A model generated the notes under the pieces. That model saw only the letters and a program-made list of their open reading frames with translations. It had not been told where the DNA came from and searched no databases. A program made the translations under genes and the position numbers. A stretch of DNA of 64,000 nt. Source: Candidatus Nomurabacteria bacterium RIFCSPLOWO2_01_FULL_39_18. Its GTDB lineage: Bacteria; Patescibacteriota; Minisyncoccia; Phycocordibacterales; UBA9973. The DNA lies in the NCBI GenBank assembly GCA_001787005.1, contig MFUV01000010.1, forward strand, positions 73,955 through 137,954, written 5' to 3'. This document shows, piece by piece, positions 10,046-29,390 of the stretch (position 1 is its first letter; each line of letters opens with the position of its first letter).

Positions 10046-11269
10046 ATGCAAAACCCATTTCAAAACGCAATGGCACAGCTCGACAAAGTCGCCAAAATCA
10101 AAGATTTTGGCGATGAGTTTATCGCGTGCCTCCGACAGCCCGACCGAGATATTAGAATTACAATACCGGTCAAAATGGATGACGGTTCTATGAAAGTTTT
10201 TGAAGGATACCGAGTGGAATATAACAATACTCTGGGTCCCTATAAGGGCGGAATTAGATACCATCCAAACACGGAAATAAACGAGGTGAAAGCATTAGGT
10301 TTCTGGATGATGCTCAAATGCGCCGTAGCTGGAATCCCCATGGGCGGAGGCAAGGGCGGTGTAACTGTCGAGCCAAAAGATTTGTCCAAAAAAGAATCAG
10401 AAAGACTTTCTCGCGGATGGATACAAAAACTTTCTGATGTCTTGGGACCATACAAAGATGTCCCTGCGCCGGATGTAAATACCACGCCCGAGATAATGGA
10501 ATGGATGGCGGACGAATACGGAAAAATAACTGGCGATAAAACCGGAGCAGTAATAACGGGCAAGCCATTGGATAAAGGTGGCTCCGAAGGGCGAAATATA
10601 TCCACAGCACAGGGCGGATTTTATGTCTTTGAGACACTTCGTAGAGAGCTTGGATTGCCAGAGAAATGCAAAGTAGTAATTCAGGGATTTGGAAATGTGG
10701 GAAATAACGCCGCAGATATTTGGAGCAAGGCAGGACATGTAGTAATAGCGGTTTCAGATTCCAAAGGAGGAATTTATAAAGCAGACGGGATTGATATAAA
10801 AAAGCTCGCTGAGCATAAAAAAAATACTGGTTCACTTTCTGGCTTTGAAGGAAGCTCAAATATTACCAATCAAGAATTACTGGAGATAGAGTGTGATTTA
10901 TTAATTCCTGCTGCTTTTGAAAATGTCGTCACCGAAGCCAATGCAGGAAAAATTAAGGCAAAGATCGTCCTAGAGCTCGCCAATGGACCCACAACTCCAG
11001 AAGCGGATGAAATTTTGTTTAAAAAAAACATTCCCGTAATTCCAGATATCTTGGCAAATTCTGGAGGCGTTGTAGTTTCCTATTTTGAATGGGATCAAAA
11101 TTTGAAACAGGAGCACTGGAGTGAAAAAGAAGTCTTCGAAAAATTACGTCCGATGCTTGAAGATGCTTCAAAAAAAATATTAGAAAAGGCAAGAGAGGCA
11201 AACACCTCTCTCCGCATGGGCGCCTTCATCTTGGCACTTGAGAGAATAAAAGAAAAAATGCGCGGTTAG
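10046..11269 (+). CDS. gdhA: Glutamate dehydrogenase
   Basis: Catalytic lysine motif GIPMGGGKGGVTVEP. Rossmann motif GFGNVGNNAA. Size is 407 aa. Confidence 0.9.
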   Translation: MQNPFQNAMAQLDKVAKIKDFGDEFIACLRQPDRDIRITIPVKMDDGSMKVFEGYRVEYNNTLGPYKGGIRYHPNTEINEVKALGFWMMLKCAVAGIPMGGGKGGVTVEPKDLSKKESERLSRGWIQKLSDVLGPYKDVPAPDVNTTPEIMEWMADEYGKITGDKTGAVITGKPLDKGGSEGRNISTAQGGFYVFETLRRELGLPEKCKVVIQGFGNVGNNAADIWSKAGHVVIAVSDSKGGIYKADGIDIKKLAEHKKNTGSLSGFEGSSNITNQELLEIECDLLIPAAFENVVTEANAGKIKAKIVLELANGPTTPEADEILFKKNIPVIPDILANSGGVVVSYFEWDQNLKQEHWSEKEVFEKLRPMLEDASKKILEKAREANTSLRMGAFILALERIKEKMRG

Positions 11270-11331
11270 CTCAGTGGTAGAGCGACCCCTTGACGTGGGG
11301 TAGGCCGGGGGTTCAATCCCCTCACCGCGCA
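11260..11331 (+). tRNA. tRNA-Val (anticodon GAC)
   Basis: Cloverleaf: acceptor gcgcggt/accgcgc; D-arm gctc-agtggta-gagc; anticodon stem acccc/ggggt with loop ttGACgt; T-arm ggggg-ttcaatc-ccctc. Its first 10 nt overlap the gdhA stop region. Confidence 0.85.
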
Positions 11332-11332
11332 C

Positions 11333-12631
11333 ATGAGAATCTTGAGCATCGAGACATCTTGCGATGATACGGCAATAAGCATTATGGAGGCAAAGGGGGG
11401 TGTTACGAACGCCTCCTTCGGCGTATTGGCAAACACTTCAAATTCACAAATAAAAGTCCATATCCCGTACGGTGGAGTTTATCCAGTGCTGGCAAAACGG
11501 GAACATACTAAAAATCTGCCAATCCTTCTAGAACAAGCATTAAAGGAAGCAAAACTAGAGAAAGAAAATAGTCCTGTGGATGTTATTGCTGTCACTTACG
11601 GTCCGGGGCTGGAGATGTGTTTGTGGGAGGGAATAATTTTCGCACAAAAATTAGCGAAAAAGTGGGAAGTGCCGTTAATCCCCGTAAACCATATGGAGGG
11701 GCATGTGTTGTCAGTATTCGGGAAAGATAAAGGGAAGTTTAAAATCCCTAAAATAAAATTTCCCATGCTTTCCTTGCTCGTTTCCGGCAGACATACGCAG
11801 TTAGTACTGTCTAAAAAACCCGCCCGACCGGACGCTAGCCCGACAAGGTCATTCTGGCGGGGTCGTTCGGGCGGGTGGTTGCAATACGAAATTATCGGTA
11901 CAACCTTAGATGACGCAGTTGGTGAAGCTTTCGACAAAGTTGCCAGAATGCTCGATCTTCCCTACCCGGGCGGACCGGAGATTTCTAAACTGGCAGAAGA
12001 AGCCAGAATCTTGCGCAAGGGAAGCATTGCGCAAGCTGGCGACAGGAAAAGAGGGGCTTTGCTCTTACAGAGACTTGGGAGCGCGTCGTCTGCTTTCCAG
12101 CAGACCCCCGCACGAGGAATTTTTCAGCAGAAAAATATCCGTGCTCTGGAAGAGCAAAGCCCCTCTTTAAAGCTTCCTCGCCCAATGCTTCACAGTAAAA
12201 ATTTTGATTTCTCTTTCGCAGGATTGAAAACCGCTGTGCTTTACCTCATACATGATCTGAAAAAAGAACATTCCAACATTTTGCAAAATAACCAAATGAA
12301 AATGCAGATTGCTTTAGAGTTTGAGAATGCGGCGATAGAGTGCCTTACACACAAAACAAAAAAGGCTATAGAAAAATATAAAATCAAAACACTCATCGTG
12401 GCTGGCGGGGTGGCCGCGAATAAACATTTAAGAAATGAGATGCAAAAAATCACCACCCCAGACCCCTCCTCAAAAAGGAGGGGAGGAATTAAACTCCTCT
12501 TCCCCACCAGAGAACTCTCGGGGGACAATTCTCTGATGATCGGCATCGCCGGATACCTAAATTATCTAAAAAATAAGAAGAAAGTTCCCAAACTAGAGAG
12601 CATCAAAGCGACTGGTAATTTAAGGCTCTAA
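11333..12631 (+). CDS. tsaD: tRNA N6-threonylcarbamoyladenosine synthase TsaD (Kae1/Gcp family) with two GC-rich insertions
   Basis: MRILSIETSCDDTAISI, HMEGHVL, GRHTQLVL...YEIIGTTLDDAVGEAFDKVARML, FSFAGLKTAV. Insertions lie at about 11816..11881 and 12010..12170 relative to the TsaD consensus. Confidence 0.85.
   Translation: MRILSIETSCDDTAISIMEAKGGVTNASFGVLANTSNSQIKVHIPYGGVYPVLAKREHTKNLPILLEQALKEAKLEKENSPVDVIAVTYGPGLEMCLWEGIIFAQKLAKKWEVPLIPVNHMEGHVLSVFGKDKGKFKIPKIKFPMLSLLVSGRHTQLVLSKKPARPDASPTRSFWRGRSGGWLQYEIIGTTLDDAVGEAFDKVARMLDLPYPGGPEISKLAEEARILRKGSIAQAGDRKRGALLLQRLGSASSAFQQTPARGIFQQKNIRALEEQSPSLKLPRPMLHSKNFDFSFAGLKTAVLYLIHDLKKEHSNILQNNQMKMQIALEFENAAIECLTHKTKKAIEKYKIKTLIVAGGVAANKHLRNEMQKITTPDPSSKRRGGIKLLFPTRELSGDNSLMIGIAGYLNYLKNKKKVPKLESIKATGNLRL
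11816..11881. repeat. GC-rich hairpin element in-frame in tsaD (cccgcccgac ... gtcgttcgggcggg)
   Basis: An imperfect inverted repeat encodes SKKPARPDASPTRSFWRGRSGGW between the conserved HTQLVL and YEIIGTT segments. It shares a cccgac-aaggtc core with the valS 3' hairpins. Confidence 0.7.
12010..12170. repeat. Composite palindromic element in-frame in tsaD: 25-bp arms aaagaggggctttgctcttacagag / ctctggaagagcaaagcccctcttt (1 mismatch) plus cttgcgcaag palindromes
   Basis: The arms at 12048..12072 and 12144..12168 are reverse complements. The interior has nested hairpins (ctgct-ttcc-agcag). Encodes about 55 extra residues before the FSFAGLKT motif. Confidence 0.7.
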
Positions 12632-12642
12632 TATGATATTAT

Positions 12643-14829
12643 TTGTCTATGGATAGTAGATTACTCAAACCCTATAACCCGAAAGAAACAGAAGAAAGAA
12701 TCTACAAGCTATGGGAAGATAGCGGTTTTTTTAACCCAGACAAGAATACTAATCCAGACGCCGAGCCTTTCACCCTAATAATGCCTCCCGTCAATGCAAA
12801 TGGTTCTCTACACGCGGGACATGGCCTGATACTGACCATCGAAGATGTAATGGTGCGCTACAAAAGGATGCGCGGATTCAAAACGCTCTGGCTTCCAGGA
12901 CTAGACCATGCCGGCTTTGAAACACAAGTCGTTTATGAAAAGAAGTTAGAAAAAGAAGGACGAAGCAGATTCGAGATAGAACCAAAACAACTTTATAAGG
13001 AAATTCTGGACTTTACTCTAGCCAACTCGACTAATATAAAATCTCAGATAAGAAAAATGGGAGCTTCGTGCGATTGGGGACGAGAAAAATTTACACTAGA
13101 CCCAGATGTGGTGAAAACTGTCCATCAAACATTCGAGAGAATGTATGACGATGATTTGATTTATCGAGGAAAACGAATCATCAGCTGGTGTTCCAAGCAT
13201 CAAACATCATTTTCCGATTTAGAAATAAAAGACGAAGAACGCACAGACGATTTTTATTATCTCAAATATGGACCTTTCACTATCGGCACAGCTAGGCCAG
13301 AAACTAAATTTGGTGATAAATATGTAGTTATGCACCCGGATGACGAACGTTATAAAGAATACAAAGAAGGCCAAAAAATAAATTTAGAATGGATAAATGG
13401 TCCCATAGAAGCCACTGTTGTAAAAGATGACTCCATAGATAAGGAATTCGGAACCGGAGTCATGACGATAACTCCCTGGCACGACACTCTAGACTTTGAG
13501 ATCGCAGAGCGACACAAGCTAGACAAAGAACAAGTCATCGACGAAAACGGAAAATTGCTACCCATCGCGGGAGAATTTGCCGGACAACATATCAAAAAAG
13601 CACGACCACTCATAATCGAAAAATTGCAAAAGAAGGGTTTGGTGGAAAAAATAGATACAAGCTACAAGCATGTCGTTCGTACTTGCTATAAATGCGGGAC
13701 AATTATTGAACCTCAAATCAAAAGTCAGTGGTTTGTGAAAATGAAACCTTTGGCCGAGAAAGCCTTGGAGAAAATTGAGAATGGAGAAATAGTTTATATT
13801 CCCGAACATTATAAAAAAATTACGGTTCATTGGTTAGGGAACATAATGGACTGGAATATCTCCCGGCAGATAGTCTGGGGGATCCCCATTCCCGCAAAGA
13901 TATGTAAAGAATGCAGTCACGGAATGGTAGATATAGGGGAGAAAATTACAAAGTGTAAAAAGTGTGATGGCGAAGTTGAAAAAGACAATGACACCTTTGA
14001 TACTTGGTTCTCGTCTGGACAGTGGCCGTTTGTAACACTTGGTTATCCAGATTCTCCTGATTTTAAAAAATTTTATCCCACGGACGTTATGGAAACTGGG
14101 GGCGACATTATATTCTTTTGGATTTCTCGTATGATTATGCTGGGCCTCTATGTGACCGGAAAAATTCCCTTCAAGACGGTATATTTAAATGGCATGGTTC
14201 TCGACGCTAAAAGCCAAAAAATGAGTAAAAGTAAAGGAAATGTTATCGATCCGCTTGTCCTGACAGAAAAATACGGCACCGATGCCTTCAGAATGGGAAT
14301 GGTTGTGGGCAACACGCCAGGGACCTCGCTCGCACTTGCCGAGGAGCGGATTAGAGGATATAAAAATTTCGCAAATAAAATCTGGAATGCTGCACGCTTC
14401 GTGCTCGACAATACGAAAGATTTTAAAATACCGACAACGCCGCCCTATGACGAAGAAGATAAGAAATCAGACGAAGAACTGAAAAATTTAATAACCGAAA
14501 TCACGACAGAAATAGATGAATACAAGTTCTACATTGTCGCAGAAAAACTTTACCACTACTTTTGGCACACTTTTGCTGATATTATTATTGAGAGGTCAAA
14601 AAAGAAAATTGCCGAGAACAAAAATGCAGATGGAGCAAAGGCGCTTTTGTATACACACCTCGAAACATTGCTTGGGGCTTTGCACCCCTTCATGCCATTT
14701 ATTACTGAAGAAATTTGGCAAATTATAAAATCCCGACGCAAGGTCGGGACCCCGACTGAAACGTCGGGGTTACTTATGGTAGAACAATGGCCCTTTGACT
14801 CTGCTCAGGGCAAGCCAAAATCGATATGA
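12643..14829 (+). CDS. valS: Valyl-tRNA synthetase (short form, lacks C-terminal coiled-coil)
   Basis: HIGH region PPVNANGSLHAGHGL. KMSKS motif KMSKSKGN. Anticodon-binding region LHPFMPFITEEIWQ. Size is 728 aa. The last 25 aa are encoded by tandem GC hairpins. Confidence 0.9.
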   Translation: MSMDSRLLKPYNPKETEERIYKLWEDSGFFNPDKNTNPDAEPFTLIMPPVNANGSLHAGHGLILTIEDVMVRYKRMRGFKTLWLPGLDHAGFETQVVYEKKLEKEGRSRFEIEPKQLYKEILDFTLANSTNIKSQIRKMGASCDWGREKFTLDPDVVKTVHQTFERMYDDDLIYRGKRIISWCSKHQTSFSDLEIKDEERTDDFYYLKYGPFTIGTARPETKFGDKYVVMHPDDERYKEYKEGQKINLEWINGPIEATVVKDDSIDKEFGTGVMTITPWHDTLDFEIAERHKLDKEQVIDENGKLLPIAGEFAGQHIKKARPLIIEKLQKKGLVEKIDTSYKHVVRTCYKCGTIIEPQIKSQWFVKMKPLAEKALEKIENGEIVYIPEHYKKITVHWLGNIMDWNISRQIVWGIPIPAKICKECSHGMVDIGEKITKCKKCDGEVEKDNDTFDTWFSSGQWPFVTLGYPDSPDFKKFYPTDVMETGGDIIFFWISRMIMLGLYVTGKIPFKTVYLNGMVLDAKSQKMSKSKGNVIDPLVLTEKYGTDAFRMGMVVGNTPGTSLALAEERIRGYKNFANKIWNAARFVLDNTKDFKIPTTPPYDEEDKKSDEELKNLITEITTEIDEYKFYIVAEKLYHYFWHTFADIIIERSKKKIAENKNADGAKALLYTHLETLLGALHPFMPFITEEIWQIIKSRRKVGTPTETSGLLMVEQWPFDSAQGKPKSI
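14735..14790. repeat. Tandem GC-rich hairpins (cccgac-gcaag-gtcggg; accccgac-tgaaac-gtcggggt) forming the valS 3' coding end
   Basis: Perfect short inverted repeats. They encode the SRRKVGTPTETSGLL tail in place of the usual ValS coiled-coil. Confidence 0.6.
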
Positions 14830-15515
14830 TGACCAGTGATCCAAAAATTTTGTTTCTAGCATTTGTTGGCGGAATCATCCCTGCCCTATTGTGGCTGTGG
14901 TTTTGGCTGAAAGAAGACAAGCAGAAGCCCGAACCGAAGGGGCTACTTTCTGTGATTTTCATAATGGGCGTGATAGCTGTTATTTTCGTTCTGCCAATTC
15001 AAAAGTTTATCCAGGCTCATGTGGTCTCGCATGGATGGGAGCTAGTTTTATGGGCGACAGCAGAAGAAATAATGAAATATCTGGCTGTGATGATTGTACT
15101 TTATAAAACAAATTTTGCTGATGAGCCCGTAGACTGGCCAATATATATGATTACGGGGGCTTTGGGTTTCGCGGCGCTCGAGAATGCTCTATTTTTGATT
15201 AAACCGCTCTCTTTAGGCGCAACTGCGGTGGGTCTCTTAACGGGTCAATTAAGATTCCTCGGATCGACTCTTCTTCATACAGTTTCAAGCGCCATAGTGG
15301 GTATTGCGGTGGGAATCTCGCTCCACATGGGTGGATTTGCTAGAAAATGGCACTTTTTGGTAGGGCTTTTTCTGGCCAGCGCCTTGCATAGTATCTTTAA
15401 TTTCTTTATAATAAAGAACAATGGCAGTGACTTTCTAAAAGTGTTTGCTTTCTTGTGGGTCGTCACCATTATTGTCATGTTACTTTTCGAAAAAATAAGA
15501 AGAATGAATTACTAG
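14826..15515 (+). CDS. PrsW-like intramembrane protease family membrane protein
   Basis: Multi-TM 229-aa protein with EExxK (ATAEEIMKYLAV) and conserved His segments, as in PrsW (PF13367). Tentative. Confidence 0.45.
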   Translation: MMTSDPKILFLAFVGGIIPALLWLWFWLKEDKQKPEPKGLLSVIFIMGVIAVIFVLPIQKFIQAHVVSHGWELVLWATAEEIMKYLAVMIVLYKTNFADEPVDWPIYMITGALGFAALENALFLIKPLSLGATAVGLLTGQLRFLGSTLLHTVSSAIVGIAVGISLHMGGFARKWHFLVGLFLASALHSIFNFFIIKNNGSDFLKVFAFLWVVTIIVMLLFEKIRRMNY

Positions 15516-15532
15516 ATTAATTAACAAAAAAT

Positions 15533-16012
15533 ATGGAACCAAAAAAGAGGGGTTTTTTTGAAAGATTGGCTGGAAGCGTTAGAATGGAAGAAGAACCGGA
15601 AGAGGGAAAGAAAAAATTTACGGGAATGGGTAATGGAGAAAAAGGCAGTAGAAAAAATAATTGGATTGAGGAAGAAAGCGAAGATGCAGAACTGGCCGTC
15701 GATGTTTACCAGACCGAAGGAGACATCATTATACAAACAATGGTTGCTGGGGTGAAGCCGGAAGATTTAGAGCTATCGATTGCCAGAGACATCGTAACTA
15801 TTTCGGGCAAGCGCGAAGAATCTAGAAACGTAGATGAAGAAAATTATTTTGTCAAAGAGCTTTATTGGGGCAAATTTTCTCGCACCATCTCGCTTCCCCA
15901 AGAAATTGAACCGGAAGAAGTTGACGCAACAGAGCGCCACGGACTTGTTACCATCAAACTTCAGAAAGTGGATAAAGAAAAGAAAAACACCATAAAAGTC
16001 AGATCAATCTAG
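15533..16012 (+). CDS. Small heat-shock protein (Hsp20/alpha-crystallin)
   Basis: Alpha-crystallin domain LAVDVYQTEGDIIIQTMVAGVKPEDLELSI...GKFSRTISLP...VDATERHGLVTIKL. Confidence 0.8.
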   Translation: MEPKKRGFFERLAGSVRMEEEPEEGKKKFTGMGNGEKGSRKNNWIEEESEDAELAVDVYQTEGDIIIQTMVAGVKPEDLELSIARDIVTISGKREESRNVDEENYFVKELYWGKFSRTISLPQEIEPEEVDATERHGLVTIKLQKVDKEKKNTIKVRSI

Positions 16013-17259
16013 GAGATCAAATCTGCTTTTTCTTTTATTTCAACTTTTCTCACAAAATAAAAGCCGATGGCCACAAATACTGCCATGGTTATCATGGCAA
16101 TACGGTATCGTACTACTCCAAAATTAATAAAAATATAAGTTATCATCCCCCAAAATAGTGGTCCTATCAGAGTTGATGTTCGCTCTGCTAATGTGTAAAA
16201 ACTAAAACCGAAATTTAGCTTCTCTTTCGGAGTAAGCGCTGTCATAGCAGTTCGACTCACAGTCCATATAGCTCCAAAAAGAAAACCGACCAAAATACAC
16301 AAAACAGTGAATAACTTGAAGTTTGTGTTTAAACCAAGTACGGGTATGAATACGACCCAAACACCAATCACAATCAAGAGAGATTTCTTGAGCCCAATTT
16401 TATCTATAATAAAACCGGAAGAAACAGCTCCGATGATGGAAGTAAGCAAAGCTCCGCCCAGAAGAATTGTTTTTAATTTGTCAGAGACGCCAAAGACATT
16501 CTGGAGGTAAATGGGAAAATTATTAGAAACGGTAAGAATAGCGTCATTGAAAAAGAAATAGGCTAAAAGAAACATTTTCATGTTTCTATCAGAAACTAGG
16601 CTTTTGAATTGCTGCCATAGGCTTCTGTATTCTTCTTTAAAATTAATTTTGTAATCTGGATTTTGTTGCATTTGTAATTTGAAAAACAAAAGCATCGGCA
16701 ACGCAAGAATAAAAAATAAAATAGTTGCGGGCAAGAAAGTCTGTGCGCGACCAGTTTCGCCTATGAGATAAATAGCCCCGCCAGCAAGGGGTAAGGTAAT
16801 TAATAGCCCAGCGATTTGCCCCAGGTAGTTGGCTCCGATACCGATACCGGACACTCTCCCCCATTTTTCTCTAGGGGCAATATGATGCAAGAATGCATTA
16901 TAAAAAACAAAGGAAAATTGGTAAAAATAATTCGCAAGAAGAAAGAATAATGCCGCTAAAAATATTTGATGAGAAAAAAACAAGGCTACCAGAGAAACAC
17001 CAAGAAAGAAGAGGAGTGAAAGCATAGTGATCTTATTGAAATAACTTTGTTGTCTTCCTGTCTTGTCGGCAATGCTTCCTAAAATAGGAGCTGTAAAAAG
17101 AAGCATGGCTGATCCAATTGTAAAAATCATGTTAAACCAAAAATCTGCTATCCCCTTGTCAATTACCAGCCATTGAGAAAAATATAAAAAGAAAACAATG
17201 AAGACCATCGAGTTCGCAAAATCATAGAGAGTCCAGAAAAAAATATTTTTCTTGTTCAT
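16009..17259 (-). CDS. MFS transporter
   Basis: About 12 predicted TM helices and a GxLaDrxGrkx-like loop (GSIADKTGRQQ). The ORF-track start at 17283 overlaps tRNA-Phe, so the start was moved to the Met at 17259 (MNKKNIFF). Confidence 0.7.
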   Translation of the reverse strand: MNKKNIFFWTLYDFANSMVFIVFFLYFSQWLVIDKGIADFWFNMIFTIGSAMLLFTAPILGSIADKTGRQQSYFNKITMLSLLFFLGVSLVALFFSHQIFLAALFFLLANYFYQFSFVFYNAFLHHIAPREKWGRVSGIGIGANYLGQIAGLLITLPLAGGAIYLIGETGRAQTFLPATILFFILALPMLLFFKLQMQQNPDYKINFKEEYRSLWQQFKSLVSDRNMKMFLLAYFFFNDAILTVSNNFPIYLQNVFGVSDKLKTILLGGALLTSIIGAVSSGFIIDKIGLKKSLLIVIGVWVVFIPVLGLNTNFKLFTVLCILVGFLFGAIWTVSRTAMTALTPKEKLNFGFSFYTLAERTSTLIGPLFWGMITYIFINFGVVRYRIAMITMAVFVAIGFYFVRKVEIKEKADLIS

Positions 17260-17262
17260 TTG

Positions 17263-17334
17263 TGCCTGGGGGGTGAATCGCACACCCGGCCACTTCCTCT
17301 TCAGGGAAATGCTCTACTACTGAGCTACCCAGGC
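17263..17334 (-). tRNA. tRNA-Phe (anticodon GAA)
   Basis: Minus-strand cloverleaf: gcctggg-ta-gctc-agtagta-gagc-a-tttcc-ctGAAga-ggaag-tggcc-gggtg-tgcgatt-caccc-cccaggc-a. Confidence 0.85.
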
Positions 17335-17354
17335 ATAATTGTTTTCAATAAAAA

Positions 17355-17600
17355 TTACTGACCGAACTGTTTTATATTATTTAACACATCACCTGCTCCG
17401 CTATATACGCCTATTAATTGCTCTATATACGGCTGGATAAAATAATAAGCGCCAAGAGCAGAGCCTATAATAAGGACCCAATACAATATGGTCATCATCC
17501 TCTGAAAGCGCATTGAGCGCCTCATGGAGTGCAGTATACTATTATTCTCCTTTGCCAGCGCTAGAGTCTCCTCTAAAAGCTTTTTGGATTCGGGATCCAT
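17355..17600 (-). CDS. Small membrane protein, unknown
   Basis: 81-aa ORF with one hydrophobic helix. No recognisable motif. Confidence 0.35.
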   Translation of the reverse strand: MDPESKKLLEETLALAKENNSILHSMRRSMRFQRMMTILYWVLIIGSALGAYYFIQPYIEQLIGVYSGAGDVLNNIKQFGQ

Positions 17601-17730
17601 CCCGTACGAAATTTCATTAAATTAATAAAATGACCAATCCCATATACGAAACTTTATTAGCAAGATTTCGTACGGGATCCATAGCTACAATTTAGCATAA
17701 TAATTAAAGAAATAAAAGGTTACAGGAAAC

Positions 17731-18567
17731 TTATTGAGTAAGAATTGAAGGATTGTTATATCTTGATATTCTGGCTCGTTTTACTTCTTCTTTTTTGTCT
17801 TTTAATTGATTCGTATCAGATGCCCTAACCAATTCACCCGCTAGCTGTTCTGCTTTAATTTTACTAGATTTATTTCTTCCTAGAATTGCGTAGCCCATAG
17901 CTATTGTAATTTTAAAAGAAAAAGGTTCGCCCGAAAAACTCTCGTCCTCATTTATCTTTACGCCTTTAACAATCAAATTGGTATTTACTTTATCTTGAAT
18001 TCTTGTAAAAATTTTTTTCAACTTTACATCATCTAAATTACCTCTAATCGACAATACCATCCGGAATTCATCGCCATGGGGATGAAATACTAGATCCCCT
18101 CCAAGTTCTTTTACTGCTTCCTGCAACCTTTGGGCGACAGCTTTGATTGCTTGATCGCCCACAGGATGACCATGCCTATCATTTATTACCTTAAAATCAT
18201 CTATGTCCGCAGCAATTGCCATGATGGAGTCTGGAGTAGACTCGCTCTTGGGATTCTGATTTAATTGCTTAATCAATGCAGGCAGTTTTCTTTCTAAACC
18301 AAGACGGTTGTAGCAACCAGTAAAGGTATCAATGCCTTGGTTCGTTTCTAGAGAAGAAATTATTCCTTCTTGCTTTCTCGCAAGCACAGTAATTAATTCA
18401 ATATATTGATCTTTTGTTATTGCTTCTCTCGCGAGAGCGCCACTTATCATATTCACCGTGCAAACACCTCTTGCCAACAAATCCTTTAAATCTTTAAGGG
18501 TCTTCGGGTTCTCCATTATTGCTGTTTTTTCTGGAGTATATGGTGGCTTTCTTGGTATCCATTCCAT
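17731..18567 (-). CDS. GGDEF-domain protein (signature reads HGDEF)
   Basis: GCYNRLGLERKL, IAADIDDFKVINDRHGHPVGDQAI and HPHGDEFRMVL are GGDEF-domain landmarks. The first Gly of GG(D/E)EF is replaced by His. Confidence 0.7.
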   Translation of the reverse strand: MEWIPRKPPYTPEKTAIMENPKTLKDLKDLLARGVCTVNMISGALAREAITKDQYIELITVLARKQEGIISSLETNQGIDTFTGCYNRLGLERKLPALIKQLNQNPKSESTPDSIMAIAADIDDFKVINDRHGHPVGDQAIKAVAQRLQEAVKELGGDLVFHPHGDEFRMVLSIRGNLDDVKLKKIFTRIQDKVNTNLIVKGVKINEDESFSGEPFSFKITIAMGYAILGRNKSSKIKAEQLAGELVRASDTNQLKDKKEEVKRARISRYNNPSILTQ

Positions 18568-18616
18568 CTAAAAATCATAACACAAGCCACCATGAAATCC
18601 AATTTTGTAAAATTTG

Positions 18617-18691
18617 TGGTGCCCCCGGCAGGAATTGAACCTACATCTATCCCTTAGGACGGGACTGTTCTATCCGTTGAACTACGAGGAC
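18617..18691 (-). tRNA. tRNA-Arg (anticodon CCT) with encoded CCA
   Basis: Minus strand: gtcctcg-ta-gttc-aacggata-gaac-a-gtccc-gtCCTaa-gggat-agat-gtagg-ttcaatt-cctgc-cgggggc-a-cca. The acceptor stem has two G-U pairs. The anticodon assignment is moderately confident. Confidence 0.65.
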
Positions 18692-18817
18692 ATATATATT
18701 GTTTGTTCCAATCAAATTTAGCATATTTATAATAAACTTGAAATGCTATGTTGATTTTCTTTTTCAAATTTATTAAAGTTTTTTGCGAAAGAGGTGCGCA
18801 ACGTTTCCCTTTTTTAT

Positions 18818-19063
18818 TTAAACTCCAAGCAGTTTAGAAATTAAAGGCTTGCTGAAGCCCACTACGAGATCATTCCCAATGATTATTACCGGCACGCCCA
18901 TTTGCTTGCTTTTTTCTATCATTTCCTTTCTTTTTTCGGCATCGCTCGCTACATCATATTCCGTATAAGGTACGTTTTTTTCCTTGAAAAACTCTTTAGC
19001 CATATGGCAGAAATGGCAGGACGGGGTAGTATAAATTGTTACCTCTGGTGTTATATTTGGCAT
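18818..19063 (-). CDS. Glutaredoxin-like protein (CxxC = CHFC)
   Basis: 81 aa. TIYTTPSCHFCHMAKEFF followed by GVPVIIIGNDLVVGF is a thioredoxin-fold glutaredoxin/NrdH pattern. Confidence 0.7.
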   Translation of the reverse strand: MPNITPEVTIYTTPSCHFCHMAKEFFKEKNVPYTEYDVASDAEKRKEMIEKSKQMGVPVIIIGNDLVVGFSKPLISKLLGV

Positions 19064-19126
19064 TTGATTTTCTGAAATTATCTTCTAATCCTTCTATTGT
19101 ATCATACTTGTCAAGTAAATAAAAAA

Positions 19127-19182
19127 TGTTCAGTGTTAAACACTGTTAAACACTCAGTGTTGAACATTTCGATGTTGAACAT
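19127..19182. repeat. REP-like hairpin repeats, family A (units gtgttgaacac / tgttgaacatttcg), 5' flank of RAYT-1
   Basis: Tandem imperfect palindromes: cagtgttaaacactgttaaacactcagtgttgaacatttcgatgttgaacat. Confidence 0.7.
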
Positions 19183-19573
19183 TTTTATGGCAGTTTTTCA
19201 ATCATTTGTTGGATCGAACATTCACCAGGAAAATCAAAGTTAGGGACATCCCCATACCCAGTAGTGCCACCAATAAGAGCATGCCATAATCGATACTTTT
19301 GTCTTTCTAGGGGGTTGGGATAAGATTGATTGATAATATCTAGGCACCGCTCTTTCCATTTTTGAAACTCGGTAACTCCTATTTTTTCTTGAAAAACAAG
19401 CATCTTTTGCTTAAGTCTAATAATTAACTCTCTCTCTCTGCCGAAGTCTGTAATAATTTTGTACTTTTTTCATCCCTGGATTGTACACCCTCAGCTCCTT
19501 GGGAAAATTTATCTGGTTTTGACATAATATTTGATTTTATCACACCAACAACCCTTTTCCCAATACCCACACT

Positions 19574-19612
19574 AATGTTGAACAATGTTAAACACCGAGT
19601 GTTGAACATTTT
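19574..19612. repeat. REP-like family A copy immediately upstream of RAYT-1 start
   Basis: atgttgaacaatgttaaacaccgagtgttgaacattttt. Confidence 0.7.
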
Positions 19613-19635
19613 TCATAAAGGTATATAATACGGTT

Positions 19636-20301
19636 ATGAGAAATATAAAAATAGCACCCGGAGAATATTATCATATTCTTAATCGTGGAATGAGTAAGCA
19701 ACTAATTTTTCATGACAATAGAGATAGAACAAGATTCCTCTTTCTAATTTTATACTTTCAATCCCCTGTTACAATTCAAAATATACATCGTCCAGTAAAG
19801 TCATTTGTTGAACACTCGGTGTTTAACATTGATAAAGAGATTGAGCAAGAAATTGTTACAAGGAAGTTCGTAGAACTCGTCTCCTTTTGCTTAATGCCAA
19901 ATCATTTTCACTTAATCGTCAAAGAAATCGAGGAAAATGGTATGGCTAGATACATGCAAAGAGTCTTGAATGGTTATACCAAATACTGTAATACAAAATA
20001 CAATAAATCGGGACATCTTTTTCAGGGACCATATAAAGCAGTACATATAAGGAGTAACGAGCAACTTTTATATTTATCTTCATATGTCCACAGGAATCCG
20101 AGAGAACTGAAAGAGTGGTTAAATAAAGAAAGTAGTTATCCATGGTCAAGTTACCAAGATTTTATAAAGAAGAATAGGTTTAAAGAATTACTTGTTCTTG
20201 ATATAATCAGTGGACAATTCAAAAATAAAGACAAGTATAATAAATTTATAAAGGAGAGTACGGCAAAATTATTAAAGGAAGAACTGGATTGGATAGACTA
20301 G
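19636..20301 (+). CDS. REP-associated tyrosine transposase-like (IS200/IS605 Y1 HuH transposase family), RAYT-1
   Basis: GEYYHILNRG near the N-terminus, the HuH motif CLMPNHFHLIV, and the downstream QGPYK with Tyr. Size is 221 aa. A REP-A copy (tgttgaacactcggtgtttaacat, 19806..19829) lies inside the ORF, in-frame. Confidence 0.75.
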   Translation: MRNIKIAPGEYYHILNRGMSKQLIFHDNRDRTRFLFLILYFQSPVTIQNIHRPVKSFVEHSVFNIDKEIEQEIVTRKFVELVSFCLMPNHFHLIVKEIEENGMARYMQRVLNGYTKYCNTKYNKSGHLFQGPYKAVHIRSNEQLLYLSSYVHRNPRELKEWLNKESSYPWSSYQDFIKKNRFKELLVLDIISGQFKNKDKYNKFIKESTAKLLKEELDWID

Positions 20302-20304
20302 TAA

Positions 20305-20351
20305 GTGTTCAGTGTTCAACACCGAGTGTTGAACACTCGGTGTTGAACAAT
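20305..20351. repeat. REP-like family A, 3' flank of RAYT-1 (perfect hairpin gtgttcaacac-cga-gtgttgaacac, then a second overlapping hairpin)
   Basis: The 11-bp stems are exact reverse complements. It sits in inverted orientation relative to the upstream copies, a REPIN-like arrangement. Confidence 0.8.
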
Positions 20352-20428
20352 ATGCGGGATTAGTTTAGTGGCAGAATGAGTCCTTCCCAAGGATTAGACG
20401 GGGTTTCGATTACCCCATCCCGCACCAG

Positions 20429-24787: not shown

Positions 24788-26467
24788 TCAAAGCCCTTCT
24801 TGAGGAGGTGCGACGACTTTTGCCCTCCAGAATTTGGTTTTGAAAGTTTTTATTATTTCTTTCAATTCTTCATTTCCCAGAAGATGCAAGACCAAAATTG
24901 CCGCCCAAATACCCAGGATGCCAGAGATAAAGCCCTGCAGAAAAACTCCCCAGAATGTGGTGGTGCCAAAAATTGGTGAAAATATATTCAAAGATAGATA
25001 CGCCACAAGTCCCAGAAAAAATGCGGCGCCCAAACTTTGGAAAAAAGTCTTGGTAATGAAGGAATCCCCTTTCATAAAGTCACGCCTCACGAAAAACCAA
25101 AGAATAATTGAATTCAAAATGGTGCCGGAAGAATACGCAAGCGGAAGCATTAATACTTCTGTGCCGGGAATATCCGTGACCTTCAGCATCGACTCAATAA
25201 AATAATGAAAGATTGGAATATTTTTAAATATATATATAAATAAATAAGATAAAATTATAATAAAAATGGAACAGAAGAAATTAGTCGAAAGCGGCCTTCT
25301 GGTATTGCCCTTGGCATAGTAAGCTCGAGACAAAAGAGCAATCATTCCTTGAGCAACAACTGAAATAGAAAAGATGGCGAGCGATGCTGCTACTAGACGG
25401 GTATTTTCCCAAGAAAAAGATCCAGAACCAAGGATTACTCGAACGATCTGCGCTCGAACCACAATAAACAGAAATACTACGGGGAGCGACCAAAACACGA
25501 TGGCACGCGCGGCTTCTTTAAGATGACTTTTAAATTCATCCATTTTTCCAAGAGAGATAGACTTCGCCAGGGTGGGAAAGGCAGCCACTGCATAGGATAT
25601 ACCGATGATGTTAAGAGGCACCGATTGAAGATTGAAGGAAAGGTTGAATATTGAAATGGAACCACTCTCTAGATATGAAGCAAGGGCGATGATAGAAATC
25701 AAAGCCACGTTGTTAAAAGCCAGGCCTAGGGTACGAGGTAGTGAAGTCATCGCTACTTGTTTGACATCTTTAAAATTAATAGGAAAAGAAAATTTAAACG
25801 TAAACCCGAGAGTTTTGGATGCGAATGTTTGAACCAAAAAATGCATCAAGGCACCCAGGACTACCCCCATGGCCAACCCATAAATACCAAAGCGGGGATA
25901 GAAAAATATAACACCAGAAATAATCCCCAAATTATAAAAAACCGGACTTAAGGAATAAATAAAAAACTTCCGAAAAAGCTGGGTAAGGCTCCCAAAAAGA
26001 TTCGAAAGTCCCATTAAAATAGGTGAGAGCAACATTATGCGCGAAAGCATAACTACTTTTGTTTGCATTATCGCAGTAAAACCCGGCGCAATGAAAGACA
26101 CTAAATATGGCATTAGTAAATAGGCTATTAGGGAAACGAGTATCATTACAAGAAAAAAAACAGTAAAAACATTACTTAAGAATTTGCGCGCTTCTTCGCT
26201 TATTTTTTCGCCTGGTATTTTTGACGCTATAAATGGTATTAGCACTGTGACAGAAACCAGAGAAGCAATAGATATGAAGATGAGATCAGGAATTCTAAAC
26301 GCCGCATAATAGGCATCTAGCGTCGCCCCCGGCCCGATGAAGTGCGCAAAAGCGCGGTCACGAAATAACGCCAAAATTTGCGAAAGAAAAGCAAAAGACC
26401 CCAGAAGAAGCGCCGCTTGATTTATGTTCACATATTCCTTGCTGAAAATTTTAAAAATCCTATCCAT
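24788..26467 (-). CDS. murJ: Lipid II flippase MurJ (MviN) family
   Basis: FRDRAFAHFIGPGATLDAYYAAFRIPDLIF matches the MurJ N-terminal signature. About 14 TM helices. Size is 559 aa. Confidence 0.8.
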   Translation of the reverse strand: MDRIFKIFSKEYVNINQAALLLGSFAFLSQILALFRDRAFAHFIGPGATLDAYYAAFRIPDLIFISIASLVSVTVLIPFIASKIPGEKISEEARKFLSNVFTVFFLVMILVSLIAYLLMPYLVSFIAPGFTAIMQTKVVMLSRIMLLSPILMGLSNLFGSLTQLFRKFFIYSLSPVFYNLGIISGVIFFYPRFGIYGLAMGVVLGALMHFLVQTFASKTLGFTFKFSFPINFKDVKQVAMTSLPRTLGLAFNNVALISIIALASYLESGSISIFNLSFNLQSVPLNIIGISYAVAAFPTLAKSISLGKMDEFKSHLKEAARAIVFWSLPVVFLFIVVRAQIVRVILGSGSFSWENTRLVAASLAIFSISVVAQGMIALLSRAYYAKGNTRRPLSTNFFCSIFIIILSYLFIYIFKNIPIFHYFIESMLKVTDIPGTEVLMLPLAYSSGTILNSIILWFFVRRDFMKGDSFITKTFFQSLGAAFFLGLVAYLSLNIFSPIFGTTTFWGVFLQGFISGILGIWAAILVLHLLGNEELKEIIKTFKTKFWRAKVVAPPQEGL

Positions 26468-26471
26468 CCCG

Positions 26472-29390
26472 TTACATTACTATGTTGATCAATCTATTTT
26501 TTATATAAATAAATTTTTTAATTTCTTTGCCCGCTGTATGCCTTGCGATAACCTCGTTGGCAAGAGATTTTTTTTTTACACTTTCTTCATTTTCGTCTGC
26601 CTGTACCATAATCTCCGCCCTGACTTTGCCATTTATCTGCACAACAATTTTGACCTCATCATCTTTAATTTTTTCCTTATCATATTCCGGCCATGAAGAG
26701 AGATGAACGGATTTCTTTTCTCCAAGCATACTCCAAAGCTCTTCAGTGATATGCGGCGCAAAAGGAGAAAGAATCTGTAGAAACTTCTTGAGGTCTTCTA
26801 GGCTGACGCCGCTCTTTTCCATTTCATTTAGAAGTATCATAAGTGAGGACACTGCAGTATTAAAGCGCATACTATCAATGTCTTCACTGACTTTCTTGAT
26901 GGTTTTATGAAGAAGTTTTGCAAGCGAAGCCGGAGAAGATTTCTGAGTCGCGTAAGTCCCACCCGGTACTCCGGGAAGGGTAAAGCGCGAAGAAATCTTC
27001 TCCGGCGAAGCTATTTTATGTCCAATCTTCCAAACTCTTTCTATAAACCTCCTCGGCCCCATTAGGCTGTCTGTGCTCCATGACACTGATTGATCAAATG
27101 GCCCCATAAACATTTCATATAAGCGGAGTGTATCCGCGCCGTATGTAGAAACTATACTATCTGGATTTATAATATTTCCAAACCTTTTCGACATTTTCCT
27201 GCCATCGGAAGCAATAATCAGCCCTACGTGTTGAAGTTTCTTAAAAGGCTCTTTGTTCACCACCACGCCTATGTCGTAAAGGAATTTGTGCCAGAACCTC
27301 GCATATATCAAGTGTCTGGTCGCATGTTCTGCTCCGCCAACATATAAATCCACCTCATTCCAATATTTTTCTATATTTTTATCCACCAGAGCTTTGTTAT
27401 TGTCTGGGTCCATGTAGCGAAGATAGTACCAAGAAGAACCGGCCCATTGGGGCATAGTATTGCTCTCTCTTCTTAAAACTTTTTGGCCAACTTTCACATT
27501 TATCCAGTTTGGCACGTTCGCTAAAGGCGATTCTGCGGTTCCAGTCGGCTTATAAGACTTAACTTTTGGCAATTTCACTGGCAAATCTTTTTCTTTAACT
27601 GGGATAACTTTAGTGCCGTCGCGCAAAACCGGTATCGGTTCGCCCCAATAACGTTGGCGAGAAAATACCCAGTCGTGAAGTTTGTAAGTTACTTTTCTAT
27701 AACCAAATCCTTTTTTCACAATGTAATCAATGATATCTTCGCGTACTTCCCCCCATTCCCTGCCCTTGAATTCTACTGGTTCGGTAAGAATGCCATTTTT
27801 GATGATTGGTTGATTAATTCCGAGATACCTCTTCCAAATCACTTTCATATCTTCTCTGCTTACAAAATCCAAAACTTCTTTTTCGGAAACCCAATGCATA
27901 TCGTAAAAATCTTTTTGTTTCTGTTCTATCTCTCCTTGTTCATTGTTTTGGAGTTTAAAGTAAAGAGGAGTAAAATGCGCAAAACGGTTTTGCTTTTTTA
28001 TATCCTGCCAAAATTTGGAATGAACTACCCCACCTAATTGTTTTACAAATTTTATATTTTTATATCCCGTTTCTTCAGTTATCTCTCGGATTCCGGTTTC
28101 AACTGGATCTTCCCCATCTTCCACCCCTCCTACTACAAAACCCCGCCAATCTGTATTTTTTACGCTATGACAAAGAAATTTATTCTCTGACCAGTGCTTG
28201 ATAATGCAAACAACTGCATTTCTTTCGATAAAAGGTTCGCTCTCTCTCGCCTTATCTAAGCCTTCACTTCTCACCACCAAGGGCTCGACAACTTCTCGAA
28301 GAGGAATGTTATATTTTTTCGCGAAGGCAAAATCTCGCTCGTCATGCACACTTGAATTAACAATACCCGTCCCATAGTCCGCAATAACAAAAGTTGCAAT
28401 CCAAACAGGCAAATCGCCTGTGCCGAAAGGATTGTCCACATATCGCCCAGTAAAAATTCCTTCAATTTCTTTTTCTGTTTCAAACCCTTTTTTTATTTTT
28501 CTTTGTTTGAATTTCTCAACAAAATCTAAAACGGGTTCCTCATATTTTGTTCTCTTTATTAACTTTTTTACCAACGGATGCTCCGGCGCAATAACACAAA
28601 AGGTCTGTGCCATGAAAGTTTGCGGAATAGAATCATAGGCTTCAATTTTAATTCCTAAGTCCTTTACCTTCTGTTTGTACATGATGCCCTCGCTTCGTCC
28701 GATCCAATTTCTTTGACTTTCCTTTATGGATTCCGGCCAGTCTAGGGCGTCTAAATCCGCCAAGAGTCTGTCAGCATAGTCAGTAATCTTCAAAACCCAT
28801 TGGCGAATAGGCTTTTTTTCAACGACGGCTCCGCACCTTTCGCACTTTCCGTCTTCCACATCTTCATTGGCCAGGATAGTCATATCCCTAGGACACCAAT
28901 TCACCGGTTCGTTAGACTCATAAGCAAATCCACGTTCTAGCAATTTTAAAAATATCCACTGAGTCCATTTGTAAAATTTCGGATCTGAAGTATTCACCTC
29001 TCGAGACCAATCATAATCAAATCCGATAATTTCTAATTGTTTTTTAAATCGAGCAATATTTTTTGCCACCGACACGACGGGATTGGTTTTTGTTTTAATG
29101 GCATAATTTTCAGTAGGCAATCCGAAAGAATCAAACCCCATGGGGTGCAGAACATTAAACCCCTGCATTCTTTTTTTCCTAGAGACTACGTCTGTGGCAA
29201 TGTAGCCCTTCGGATGGCCAACATGGATGCCTTCCCCCGAGACATAGGGAAACATATCTAAAATATAGAATTTCCCTTGCCCCGCCGTAGCTTTATGCGA
29301 AGGTGGGTTTTTTGTTTGGTAGATTTTTTTCTTAGCCCATTCTTTCTGCCATTTTTTCTCAATCTTCTTGTGGTCGTATTCCTTCTTCAT
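26472..29390 (-). CDS. leuS: Leucyl-tRNA synthetase with an inserted NUDIX hydrolase domain and a palindromic insertion
   Basis: HIGH region FPYVSGEGIHVGHPKGY. KMSKS motif KMSKRFGN. Editing-domain landmarks GTGIVNSSVHDERDFAFAKKYNIP. The 972-aa length exceeds typical bacterial LeuS because of a Nudix insert of about 155 aa. Confidence 0.9.
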   Translation of the reverse strand: MKKEYDHKKIEKKWQKEWAKKKIYQTKNPPSHKATAGQGKFYILDMFPYVSGEGIHVGHPKGYIATDVVSRKKRMQGFNVLHPMGFDSFGLPTENYAIKTKTNPVVSVAKNIARFKKQLEIIGFDYDWSREVNTSDPKFYKWTQWIFLKLLERGFAYESNEPVNWCPRDMTILANEDVEDGKCERCGAVVEKKPIRQWVLKITDYADRLLADLDALDWPESIKESQRNWIGRSEGIMYKQKVKDLGIKIEAYDSIPQTFMAQTFCVIAPEHPLVKKLIKRTKYEEPVLDFVEKFKQRKIKKGFETEKEIEGIFTGRYVDNPFGTGDLPVWIATFVIADYGTGIVNSSVHDERDFAFAKKYNIPLREVVEPLVVRSEGLDKARESEPFIERNAVVCIIKHWSENKFLCHSVKNTDWRGFVVGGVEDGEDPVETGIREITEETGYKNIKFVKQLGGVVHSKFWQDIKKQNRFAHFTPLYFKLQNNEQGEIEQKQKDFYDMHWVSEKEVLDFVSREDMKVIWKRYLGINQPIIKNGILTEPVEFKGREWGEVREDIIDYIVKKGFGYRKVTYKLHDWVFSRQRYWGEPIPVLRDGTKVIPVKEKDLPVKLPKVKSYKPTGTAESPLANVPNWINVKVGQKVLRRESNTMPQWAGSSWYYLRYMDPDNNKALVDKNIEKYWNEVDLYVGGAEHATRHLIYARFWHKFLYDIGVVVNKEPFKKLQHVGLIIASDGRKMSKRFGNIINPDSIVSTYGADTLRLYEMFMGPFDQSVSWSTDSLMGPRRFIERVWKIGHKIASPEKISSRFTLPGVPGGTYATQKSSPASLAKLLHKTIKKVSEDIDSMRFNTAVSSLMILLNEMEKSGVSLEDLKKFLQILSPFAPHITEELWSMLGEKKSVHLSSWPEYDKEKIKDDEVKIVVQINGKVRAEIMVQADENEESVKKKSLANEVIARHTAGKEIKKFIYIKNRLINIVM
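26930..27005. repeat. Palindromic element in-frame in leuS: perfect 15-bp arms ccggagaagatttct / agaaatcttctccgg with inner hairpin cccgg-tact-ccggg
   Basis: Arms at 26930..26944 and 26991..27005 are exact reverse complements. Encodes the ...LPGVPGGTYATQKSSPASLAK... segment. Confidence 0.75.
27810..28286 (-). other. NUDIX hydrolase domain embedded in LeuS (about aa 369-527)
   Basis: Complete Nudix box GGVEDGEDPVETGIREITEETGY (Gx5Ex7REUxEExGU). It is inserted between the end of the CP1 editing domain (KKYNIPLREVV) and the conserved linker that precedes KLHDWVFSRQRYWGEPIP. Confidence 0.85.

Follow-up and report, generated by a model that had tools for sequence, protein, structure and literature searches.

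The window analysed here is a stretch of 64,000 nucleotides of contig MFUV01000010.1 from Candidatus Nomurabacteria bacterium RIFCSPLOWO2_01_FULL_39_18. We observed that its leuS gene, on the minus strand, encodes a bacterial-type leucyl-tRNA synthetase (LeuRS) with a Nudix hydrolase domain nested inside the CP1 editing domain. This insert is real and conserved, and its sequence indicates that it is probably catalytic. LeuRS of this clade normally bear the Nudix domain, in one to three copies that occupy at least three sites. On balance, we favor the interpretation that the insert is a working, autonomous nucleoside-polyphosphate hydrolase, of the type that cleaves diadenosine tetraphosphate (Ap4A), which rides on LeuRS and does not provide a new editing step.

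The features of the gene are given below in window positions, with residue numbers in amino acids (aa) of the window protein.

26472..29390, minus strand: leuS, bacterial-type leucyl-tRNA synthetase with nested Nudix, a single 972-aa open reading frame (ORF)
28713..29390, minus strand: N-terminal half of the catalytic (Rossmann) domain, aa 1-226 (Pfam tRNA-synt_1 and tRNA-synt_1g)
29214-29225, minus strand: HIGH motif, present as HVGH, aa 56-59 (motif search)
28281..28712, minus strand: N-terminal part of the CP1 editing domain, aa 227-370 (Pfam PF13603 and alignment with relatives)
27798..28280, minus strand: inserted Nudix domain, aa 371-531, 161 aa in frame (alignment with Nudix-less relatives)
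28062..28130, minus strand: Nudix box GGVEDGEDPVETGIREITEETGY, aa 421-443, fitting GX5EX7REUXEEXGU
27972..28022, minus strand: post-box family motifs HSKFW (F460, W461) and KKQNRFAHF (family alignments)
27693..27797, minus strand: C-terminal part of CP1, aa 532-566, up to the beta-strand linker before KLHDWVFSRQRYWGEPIP (Thermus thermophilus alignment and P0384 profile)
26475..27692, minus strand: C-terminal half of the catalytic domain, anticodon-binding domain and C-terminal domain (Pfam tRNA-synt_1 and Anticodon_1)
27183-27197, minus strand: KMSKS motif, present as KMSKR, aa 732-736 (motif search)

The Nudix domain was recognized by several measures. The first-pass annotation, made from the sequence, had claimed a complete Nudix box with its surrounding domain at 27810-28286 (aa 369-527) and had judged the catalytic Glu residues apparently intact. 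Both claims held. Pfam NUDIX (PF00293) matched aa 405-508 with 42.9 bits (gathering score 21.1; E = 6e-11), and every Glu and Arg of GX5EX7REUXEEXGU is present in GGVEDGEDPVETGIREITEETGY, with Tyr at the last U position. AlphaFold2 modeling of the insert alone with 61 homologues gave a mean pLDDT of 95.2, and the predicted structure adopts the alpha/beta/alpha Nudix fold. The full-length model reached a pLDDT of 86.6 and a predicted TM-score (pTM) of 0.78. All ten-residue pLDDT blocks across residues 361-540, which comprise the Nudix domain and both CP1 junctions, were at least 85, pLDDT being a per-residue confidence that says nothing about domain orientation. The full-length model indicated no disordered tether. 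Among 67 LeuRS that carry the insert at the position of the window copy (overall identity 55-74%), E440, G422, G442, K465 and W500 are invariant, and E436, E439, N468, R469 and F473 are conserved in at least 90%. A six-frame search of the window with the family profile scored 250 bits for the copy in leuS and found no second copy of the family.

The host protein is a recognizable bacterial LeuRS. The TIGR00396 model for the bacterial enzyme matched it with 922 bits (cut-off 548.4), in three stretches split by the insert, and both class I signature motifs (HIGH and KMSKS) are kept. Upon alignment with T. thermophilus LeuRS, query residues 4-386 paired with T. thermophilus residues 3-380, and query residues 532-727 with 380-579. 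Because both aligned query stretches meet at T. thermophilus residue 380, ~145 query residues have no counterpart in that protein. The flanking sequence is thus collinear with the bacterial enzyme, as had been proposed. The same alignment showed that the leucine-specific domain (T. thermophilus 580-636) is absent from the window LeuRS, around aa 727-732. The window protein is 100% identical to P0281, recorded as 'leucine--tRNA ligase [Candidatus Nomurabacteria bacterium RIFCSPLOWO2_01_FULL_39_18]', and identical copies are recorded on 7 contigs from several sources.

The borders of the insert, aa 371-531, were taken from an alignment with five close Nudix-less LeuRS of 801-828 aa (P0323, P0357, P0384, P0393 and P0394). 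The first residue is Leu371 and the end reads ...PIIK, followed by NGIL. The insert stands in place of a short variable loop, with '...KKYNIPLREVVEP' upstream and 'NGILTEP...' downstream. The editing-domain profile PF13603 matched aa 227-372 with 136.6 bits, corresponding to profile positions 1-144 of 185, and the insertion point falls between positions 144 and 145. When the insert was removed in silico, the HMMER alignment of PF13603 still ended at profile position 144; we used P0384 instead of the insert-deleted window protein to assign the downstream segment to CP1. In P0384, PF13603 is unbroken over positions 1-184, across the segment homologous to window aa 532-566. These residues are still part of CP1, and therefore the Nudix domain is nested inside CP1, which is itself inserted in the Rossmann fold. 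The first-pass annotation had placed the insert between the end of CP1 and the conserved linker, and this position is revised here. The arrangement is a domain within a domain within a domain (A1-B1-C-B2-A2).

We observed the Nudix family in 113 of the 118 closest LeuRS clusters and in none of the other five. Counting near-full-length copies only, over 119 close clusters, 90 had one copy, 13 had two, 11 had three and 5 had none. The largest relatives, which carry extra loop domains, reach 1,558 aa. At the DNA level, the LeuRS-Nudix architecture is confirmed by loci from Parcubacteria, Paceibacterota and Kaiserbacteria genomes. When 1.84 billion protein representatives were searched by HMMER with the insert profile, blind to the host, there were 1,368 matches, 102 of them at E <= 1e-30. 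Among the best 150 of the 1,368, 100 were embedded in LeuRS, 34 were free proteins of <200 aa and 16 were other proteins. A word-index search with the insert only returned 5 proteins and no full-length LeuRS; the architecture emerged with the profile and full-length searches.

Mapping each copy onto the window LeuRS numbering defined three insertion sites. Site B, the majority site and that of the window copy, lies in CP1 after ~aa 372-386. Site A lies between DLDAL and DWPESIK, just before CP1 (L001, P0137, P0153), and its copies are often in tandem. Site C falls within the C-terminal catalytic half, at ~aa 633-639 (P0229, P0151, P0195). The loop that serves as site C in other LeuRS differs in the window protein: at aa 631-638 (window 27477-27500), NVKVGQKV replaces the CxxC zinc knuckle, which most close relatives keep (consensus CPKCK) and which reads CPKCG in T. 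thermophilus.

Other enzymes are inserted into LeuRS of this group as well. We found a Ham1/ITPase insert in P0176 (197 bits), a HAD insert (HAD_2) in P0180 and P0310, a PF06821 serine hydrolase in P0137, P0207, P0216, P0324 and P0381 (twice in some), and a DUF559 endonuclease-like insert in P0344 (106.6 bits). The Nudix family also has other hosts. In the class II prolyl-tRNA synthetase (ProRS) P0264 (643 aa), it lies between the anticodon-binding and ProRS-C_1 domains. In P0028 (372 aa), a Ham1-like N-terminal part is followed by a Nudix domain 51% identical to the window Nudix; the N-terminal part is 29% identical to the P0176 Ham1 insert over 69 aa (E = 4e-5).

A separate group of stand-alone proteins of 280-293 aa (P0079, P0065, P0069 and ~30 similar ones) joins the C-terminal half of CP1 to a Nudix domain of the family found in LeuRS, placed at site B. 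The gene for P0079 lies at 5001-5882 of L010 and L011. The CP1 half of this type covers PF13603 positions 78-185 and has lost the HDxRD aspartates (HIQEH). These genes are not pieces of a split leuS, because their neighbors are RF-1, PcrA and Coat_F; the spore-coat (Coat_F) neighbor suggests that these contigs come from a spore-forming Firmicute. The cluster containing P0069 is heterogeneous and includes GNAT proteins.

We infer that the insert is catalytically active, that it acts on a given class of substrates, and that it works independently of the LeuRS reaction cycle, as follows. In Paceibacteria (Parcubacteria), the family normally occurs as a free-standing Nudix enzyme of ~160 aa, and here such an enzyme would have been inserted in frame at a variable loop on the surface of CP1. 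LeuRS retains its synthetic-site motifs, and the Nudix module its metal-binding and catalytic glutamates. The module would act alone, as a house-cleaning enzyme with one-to-one co-expression with an essential translation enzyme, and would add no new leucylation or editing step. Its likeliest substrates would be either Ap4A and other dinucleoside polyphosphates or nucleoside triphosphates that are non-canonical or in surplus.

The source of such a module is apparent in the same lineages, where free-standing Nudix proteins of 154-165 aa match the insert end to end, N-terminal extension included. They are encoded by ordinary genes on 0.2-0.7 Mb contigs of the Candidate Phyla Radiation (CPR), away from leuS. 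The free-standing homologues are not leuS-adjacent and have no conserved neighborhood, which rules out fusion of neighboring genes.

Structural comparison bears on the substrate. Foldseek neighbors of the insert include the Aquifex and Chlamydia Ap4A hydrolases and RppH. Among solved structures, the first was an uncharacterized protein, and next came the diadenosine polyphosphate (ApnA) hydrolases Ndx1 and Rv2985, decapping Nudix effectors and diphosphoinositol polyphosphate phosphohydrolases (DIPPs). The X-loop of the insert has aromatic residues at a distance of 17-18 positions from the box (F460 and W461 in the window protein, F-Y in most relatives), and with the spacing of NUDT2 as a guide we take these to be at the position of the ApnA hydrolase Tyr. 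In ApnA hydrolases, a Tyr in the X-loop that follows the Nudix box is the signature (PMC5389931). The Ham1, HAD and serine-hydrolase co-inserts, together with the Ham1-like::Nudix fusion, point to nucleotide house-cleaning and not to LeuRS chemistry.

Several observations weigh against this interpretation. The X-loop residue in the window is Trp or Phe, not the signature Tyr, and the closest solved structure gives no substrate because its function is uncharacterized. The box is non-canonical in roughly half of the free-standing proteins and in many second copies; it reads GGIEeGQTaEEAArAEvrEETGY, in which E7 -> Q and R15 -> A co-vary (e.g. P0005 and the second site-A copy of P0138, 381-533). 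Four LeuRS of 925-926 aa (P0308, P0311, P0314 and P0315) carry a decayed site-B Nudix with the box ending ...REIKNNIGY (EE -> NN) and 10 residues deleted downstream of it, and Pfam scored these domains 24.3 bits, barely above threshold. Retention of the domain after loss of the catalytic EE, as in P0308 and P0311, suggests a structural role too, or instead; the Nudix domain may make a structural contribution, or decay may be in progress. In addition, the preference for LeuRS is strong and repeated (three sites, up to three copies, one ProRS), beyond mere hitch-hiking, and this hints at a functional link to aminoacyl-tRNA synthetases (aaRS).

One form of such a link, which we regard as unlikely, would make the LeuRS of Paceibacteria a multi-enzyme hub, with one to three Nudix modules and in some lineages also Ham1/ITPase, HAD and serine-hydrolase modules on its loops, that couples nucleotide and alarmone clean-up to translation. 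The CP1 Nudix would degrade Ap4A and ApnA made by the synthetase itself, as a make-and-break unit. If true, this would be a self-contained make-and-break of a signalling nucleotide in organisms with minimal metabolism.

A rival reading seems to us improbable: a Nudix domain mechanistically coupled to LeuRS, which destroys Ap4A or Ap3A made by the synthetase or hydrolyses misactivated aminoacyl-adenylates in pre-transfer editing. The choice of hosts speaks for coupling, since the family favors LeuRS overwhelmingly over random hosts, apart from one ProRS, and has been inserted in LeuRS at no fewer than three sites. The nearest characterized structures, which include Ap4A and Ap6A hydrolases, speak for it as well. 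Against it, the commonest form of the family in the word-index search was free-standing, and the co-inserted Ham1 and HAD domains are unrelated to aaRS by-products. Aminoacyl-AMP is a mixed anhydride that has no pyrophosphate bond for Nudix chemistry to cleave. Adenylate hydrolysis by the Nudix domain is unsupported. The first-pass annotation had proposed clearance of aaRS by-products or of misacylated adenylates; the Ap4A part of that proposal fits the ApnA neighbors and the X-loop aromatic, and the adenylate part has no support.

The state of the editing site was a further point in favor of coupling. In the window CP1, the T-rich motif is degenerate (TTRPDT -> DSIPQT; aa 253-258, window 28617-28634), and GTGAVMAVPAHDxRD has become GTG-IVNSSVHDERD, one residue shorter (aa 340-353, window 28332-28373). 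HDERD is kept and the GTGAVMAVPAHD stretch is altered; PF13603 nonetheless scored the 136.6 bits given above. The divergent CP1 type also occurs in the Nudix-less P0384 and P0393, and a canonical CP1 occurs alongside Nudix in L002 and P0282. CP1 type and Nudix presence are thus uncorrelated, which rules out the Nudix domain as compensation for a degenerate editing site. Because Nudix-less proteins share the divergent CP1, the sequences suggest that editing may have been altered or lost in this subclade independently of the insert.

The autonomous-hydrolase interpretation also has to be weighed against a structural or selfish passenger, to which we assign the same low probability as to mechanistic coupling. 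On this view, leuS alleles would pass the insert among themselves as a cassette by recombination, permissive loops would tolerate it, and its catalysis would be dispensable. Cassette-like exchange itself is evident from the identities of individual modules to the window (catN and catC, the catalytic halves; CP1n and CP1c, the two parts of CP1).

P0282: catN 85%, CP1n 39%, Nudix 83%, CP1c 26%, catC 75%
P0295: catN 56%, CP1n 87%, Nudix 51%, CP1c 89%, catC 59%
P0289: catN 91%, CP1n 40%, Nudix 32%, CP1c 26%, catC 79%

The window leuS is therefore a mosaic, with a catalytic body nearest to P0289 and P0282 (85-91%), a CP1 nearest to P0294 and P0295 (86-89%) and a Nudix domain nearest to P0282 (83%). 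Because rate variation cannot invert the ranks of module identities, CP1 and Nudix have been swapped between leuS alleles as cassettes. GC content at third codon positions was 0.32-0.36 in the CP1-plus-Nudix stretch and 0.41-0.44 in the catalytic body; the segments are short, and the dip fits a history of cassette exchange.

In a neighbor-joining tree of 408 copies (144 columns), the labels A, B, C, free and other required 57 changes, a rough count, compared to 184 when shuffled. The 57 changes of site or state are in line with a passenger, as are the decayed copies kept in P0308 and P0311 and the DUF559 endonuclease-like insert of one relative. The labels are nevertheless far from random on the tree, and inheritance appears mostly vertical and site-faithful with some moves. 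The catalytic residues are kept in most copies examined, and a strict Nudix box is kept in 209 of 273 embedded copies, which argues against dispensable catalysis. The domain has not been fixed by addiction, because five close relatives lost it or never had it. We also considered an intein or homing element, as the first-pass annotation had suggested that the insert could be the remnant of a mobile insertion. Pfam showed no intein signature and no Hint, LAGLIDADG, HNH or other homing-endonuclease domain in the window protein. The junction residues (Leu371 at the start and ...PIIK before NGIL at the end) are unfit for an intein, which has an N-terminal Cys or Ser and a C-terminal His-Asn followed by Cys, Ser or Thr. 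An intein or homing element was ruled out on these grounds; of the suggested mobility, what stands is movement of the cassette by recombination.

Lower still do we rate an RNA-acting domain, similar to RppH and decapping enzymes, that would strip pyrophosphate or a cap (NAD or a dinucleoside tetraphosphate, Np4N) from the 5' end of tRNA-Leu or of other RNAs brought near CP1 by LeuRS binding. CP1 of LeuRS binds the acceptor end of tRNA, which also carries the 5' phosphate, and E. coli RppH, AvrM14 and an oomycete WY-Nudix effector were among the top sequence and structure matches. RppH models were also the best NCBIfam matches, but the score of the best one (RppH/NudH, PRK00714 equivalogs) was far under its cut-off (44.9 bits compared to 118). 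The copies at sites A and C, in ProRS and in the free-standing genes have no common placement with respect to tRNA, the 5' end that RNase P leaves on tRNA is normally a monophosphate, and no RNA-binding features were identified in the domain.

An artefact (chimeric assembly join, frameshift or chance motif match) is virtually impossible and was ruled out by the continuous ORF, the identical protein on 7 contigs, the >100 homologous clusters with the same architecture (113 of 118), the Pfam E-value of 6e-11 and the family-profile score of 250 bits, in accord with the first-pass annotation, which had thought a chimeric join unlikely.

Elsewhere in the window, a 559-aa ORF on the minus strand (24788-26467) lies directly downstream of leuS and, judged from its sequence, resembles a large multi-pass membrane protein. 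A 127-aa ORF with a TTG start on the plus strand (27654-28037) is antisense to the Nudix-coding stretch and, given the AT-rich sequence, has most likely arisen by chance. Four tRNA genes (Val-GAC, Phe-GAA, Arg-CCT and Gly-CCC) lie within 11260-20427.

The conserved modular architecture of aaRS is textbook knowledge, and extra catalytic domains are considered rare in bacteria. The first-pass annotation knew of no described LeuS::Nudix architecture, and likewise we found no description of it in a full-text search of open-access papers and preprints. Public LeuRS records have PF00293 among their stored Pfam domains but are called simply 'leucine--tRNA ligase' or 'class I tRNA ligase family protein'. 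Domain insertions were surveyed in 2026 over 48,551 events, and that survey describes PF13603 as insertion-exclusive (213 events), with 'zero instances of host function' (PMC13114784). The clade described here contradicts that statement, because CP1 hosts a further domain. A whole clade of ultra-small bacteria thus breaks the rule that CP1 is never a host, with LeuRS that routinely contain a nested Nudix domain, often as multiple copies at separate sites, together with other house-cleaning hydrolases. Should the Nudix domain cleave Ap4A-type nucleotides, an aaRS, as the classic source of Ap4A, would here for the first time be joined covalently to an enzyme that degrades Ap4A. Even as a passenger, the insert shows that reduced genomes pack accessory enzymes into essential genes. 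The LeuRS loops are natural, well-tolerated insertion sites for protein engineering.

Compared to known systems, the component parts are familiar, but no description was found of the nesting or of the clade-wide occurrence in multiple copies. The closest solved structure, the Enterococcus faecalis MutT/nudix protein (PDB 2AZW), is 17% identical to the insert and is a stand-alone protein. Ndx1 of T. thermophilus, Rv2985 of Mycobacterium tuberculosis, the Aquifex and Chlamydia Ap4A hydrolases, E. coli RppH/NudH and human NUDT2 have the same fold and catalytic box as the insert. They are its highest-ranked characterized neighbors (13-21% identity), and none of them is embedded in an aaRS. The free-standing Nudix proteins of Paceibacteria and Parcubacteria (for example P0040, 'NUDIX hydrolase [Candidatus Paceibacterota bacterium]', P0022 and P0002) are closer, at 30-42% identity. 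They have in common with the insert the G-x-D-A-P-R ... ERNAV extension, the Nudix box, KxxNRFAHF and the W motifs. These members are separate genes with no link to leuS and about half have the variant box, whereas the window copy is canonical. Among synthetases, the NCBIfam family NF040702 ('isoleucine--tRNA ligase, N-acetyltransferase domain-containing'), which was among the NCBIfam matches of the window protein, similarly joins a class Ia enzyme to an unrelated catalytic domain, although its partner is GNAT and not Nudix. CP1 of LeuRS is itself the classic insert in a Rossmann fold, and this arrangement is kept in the window LeuRS; the difference is that CP1 is here also a host.

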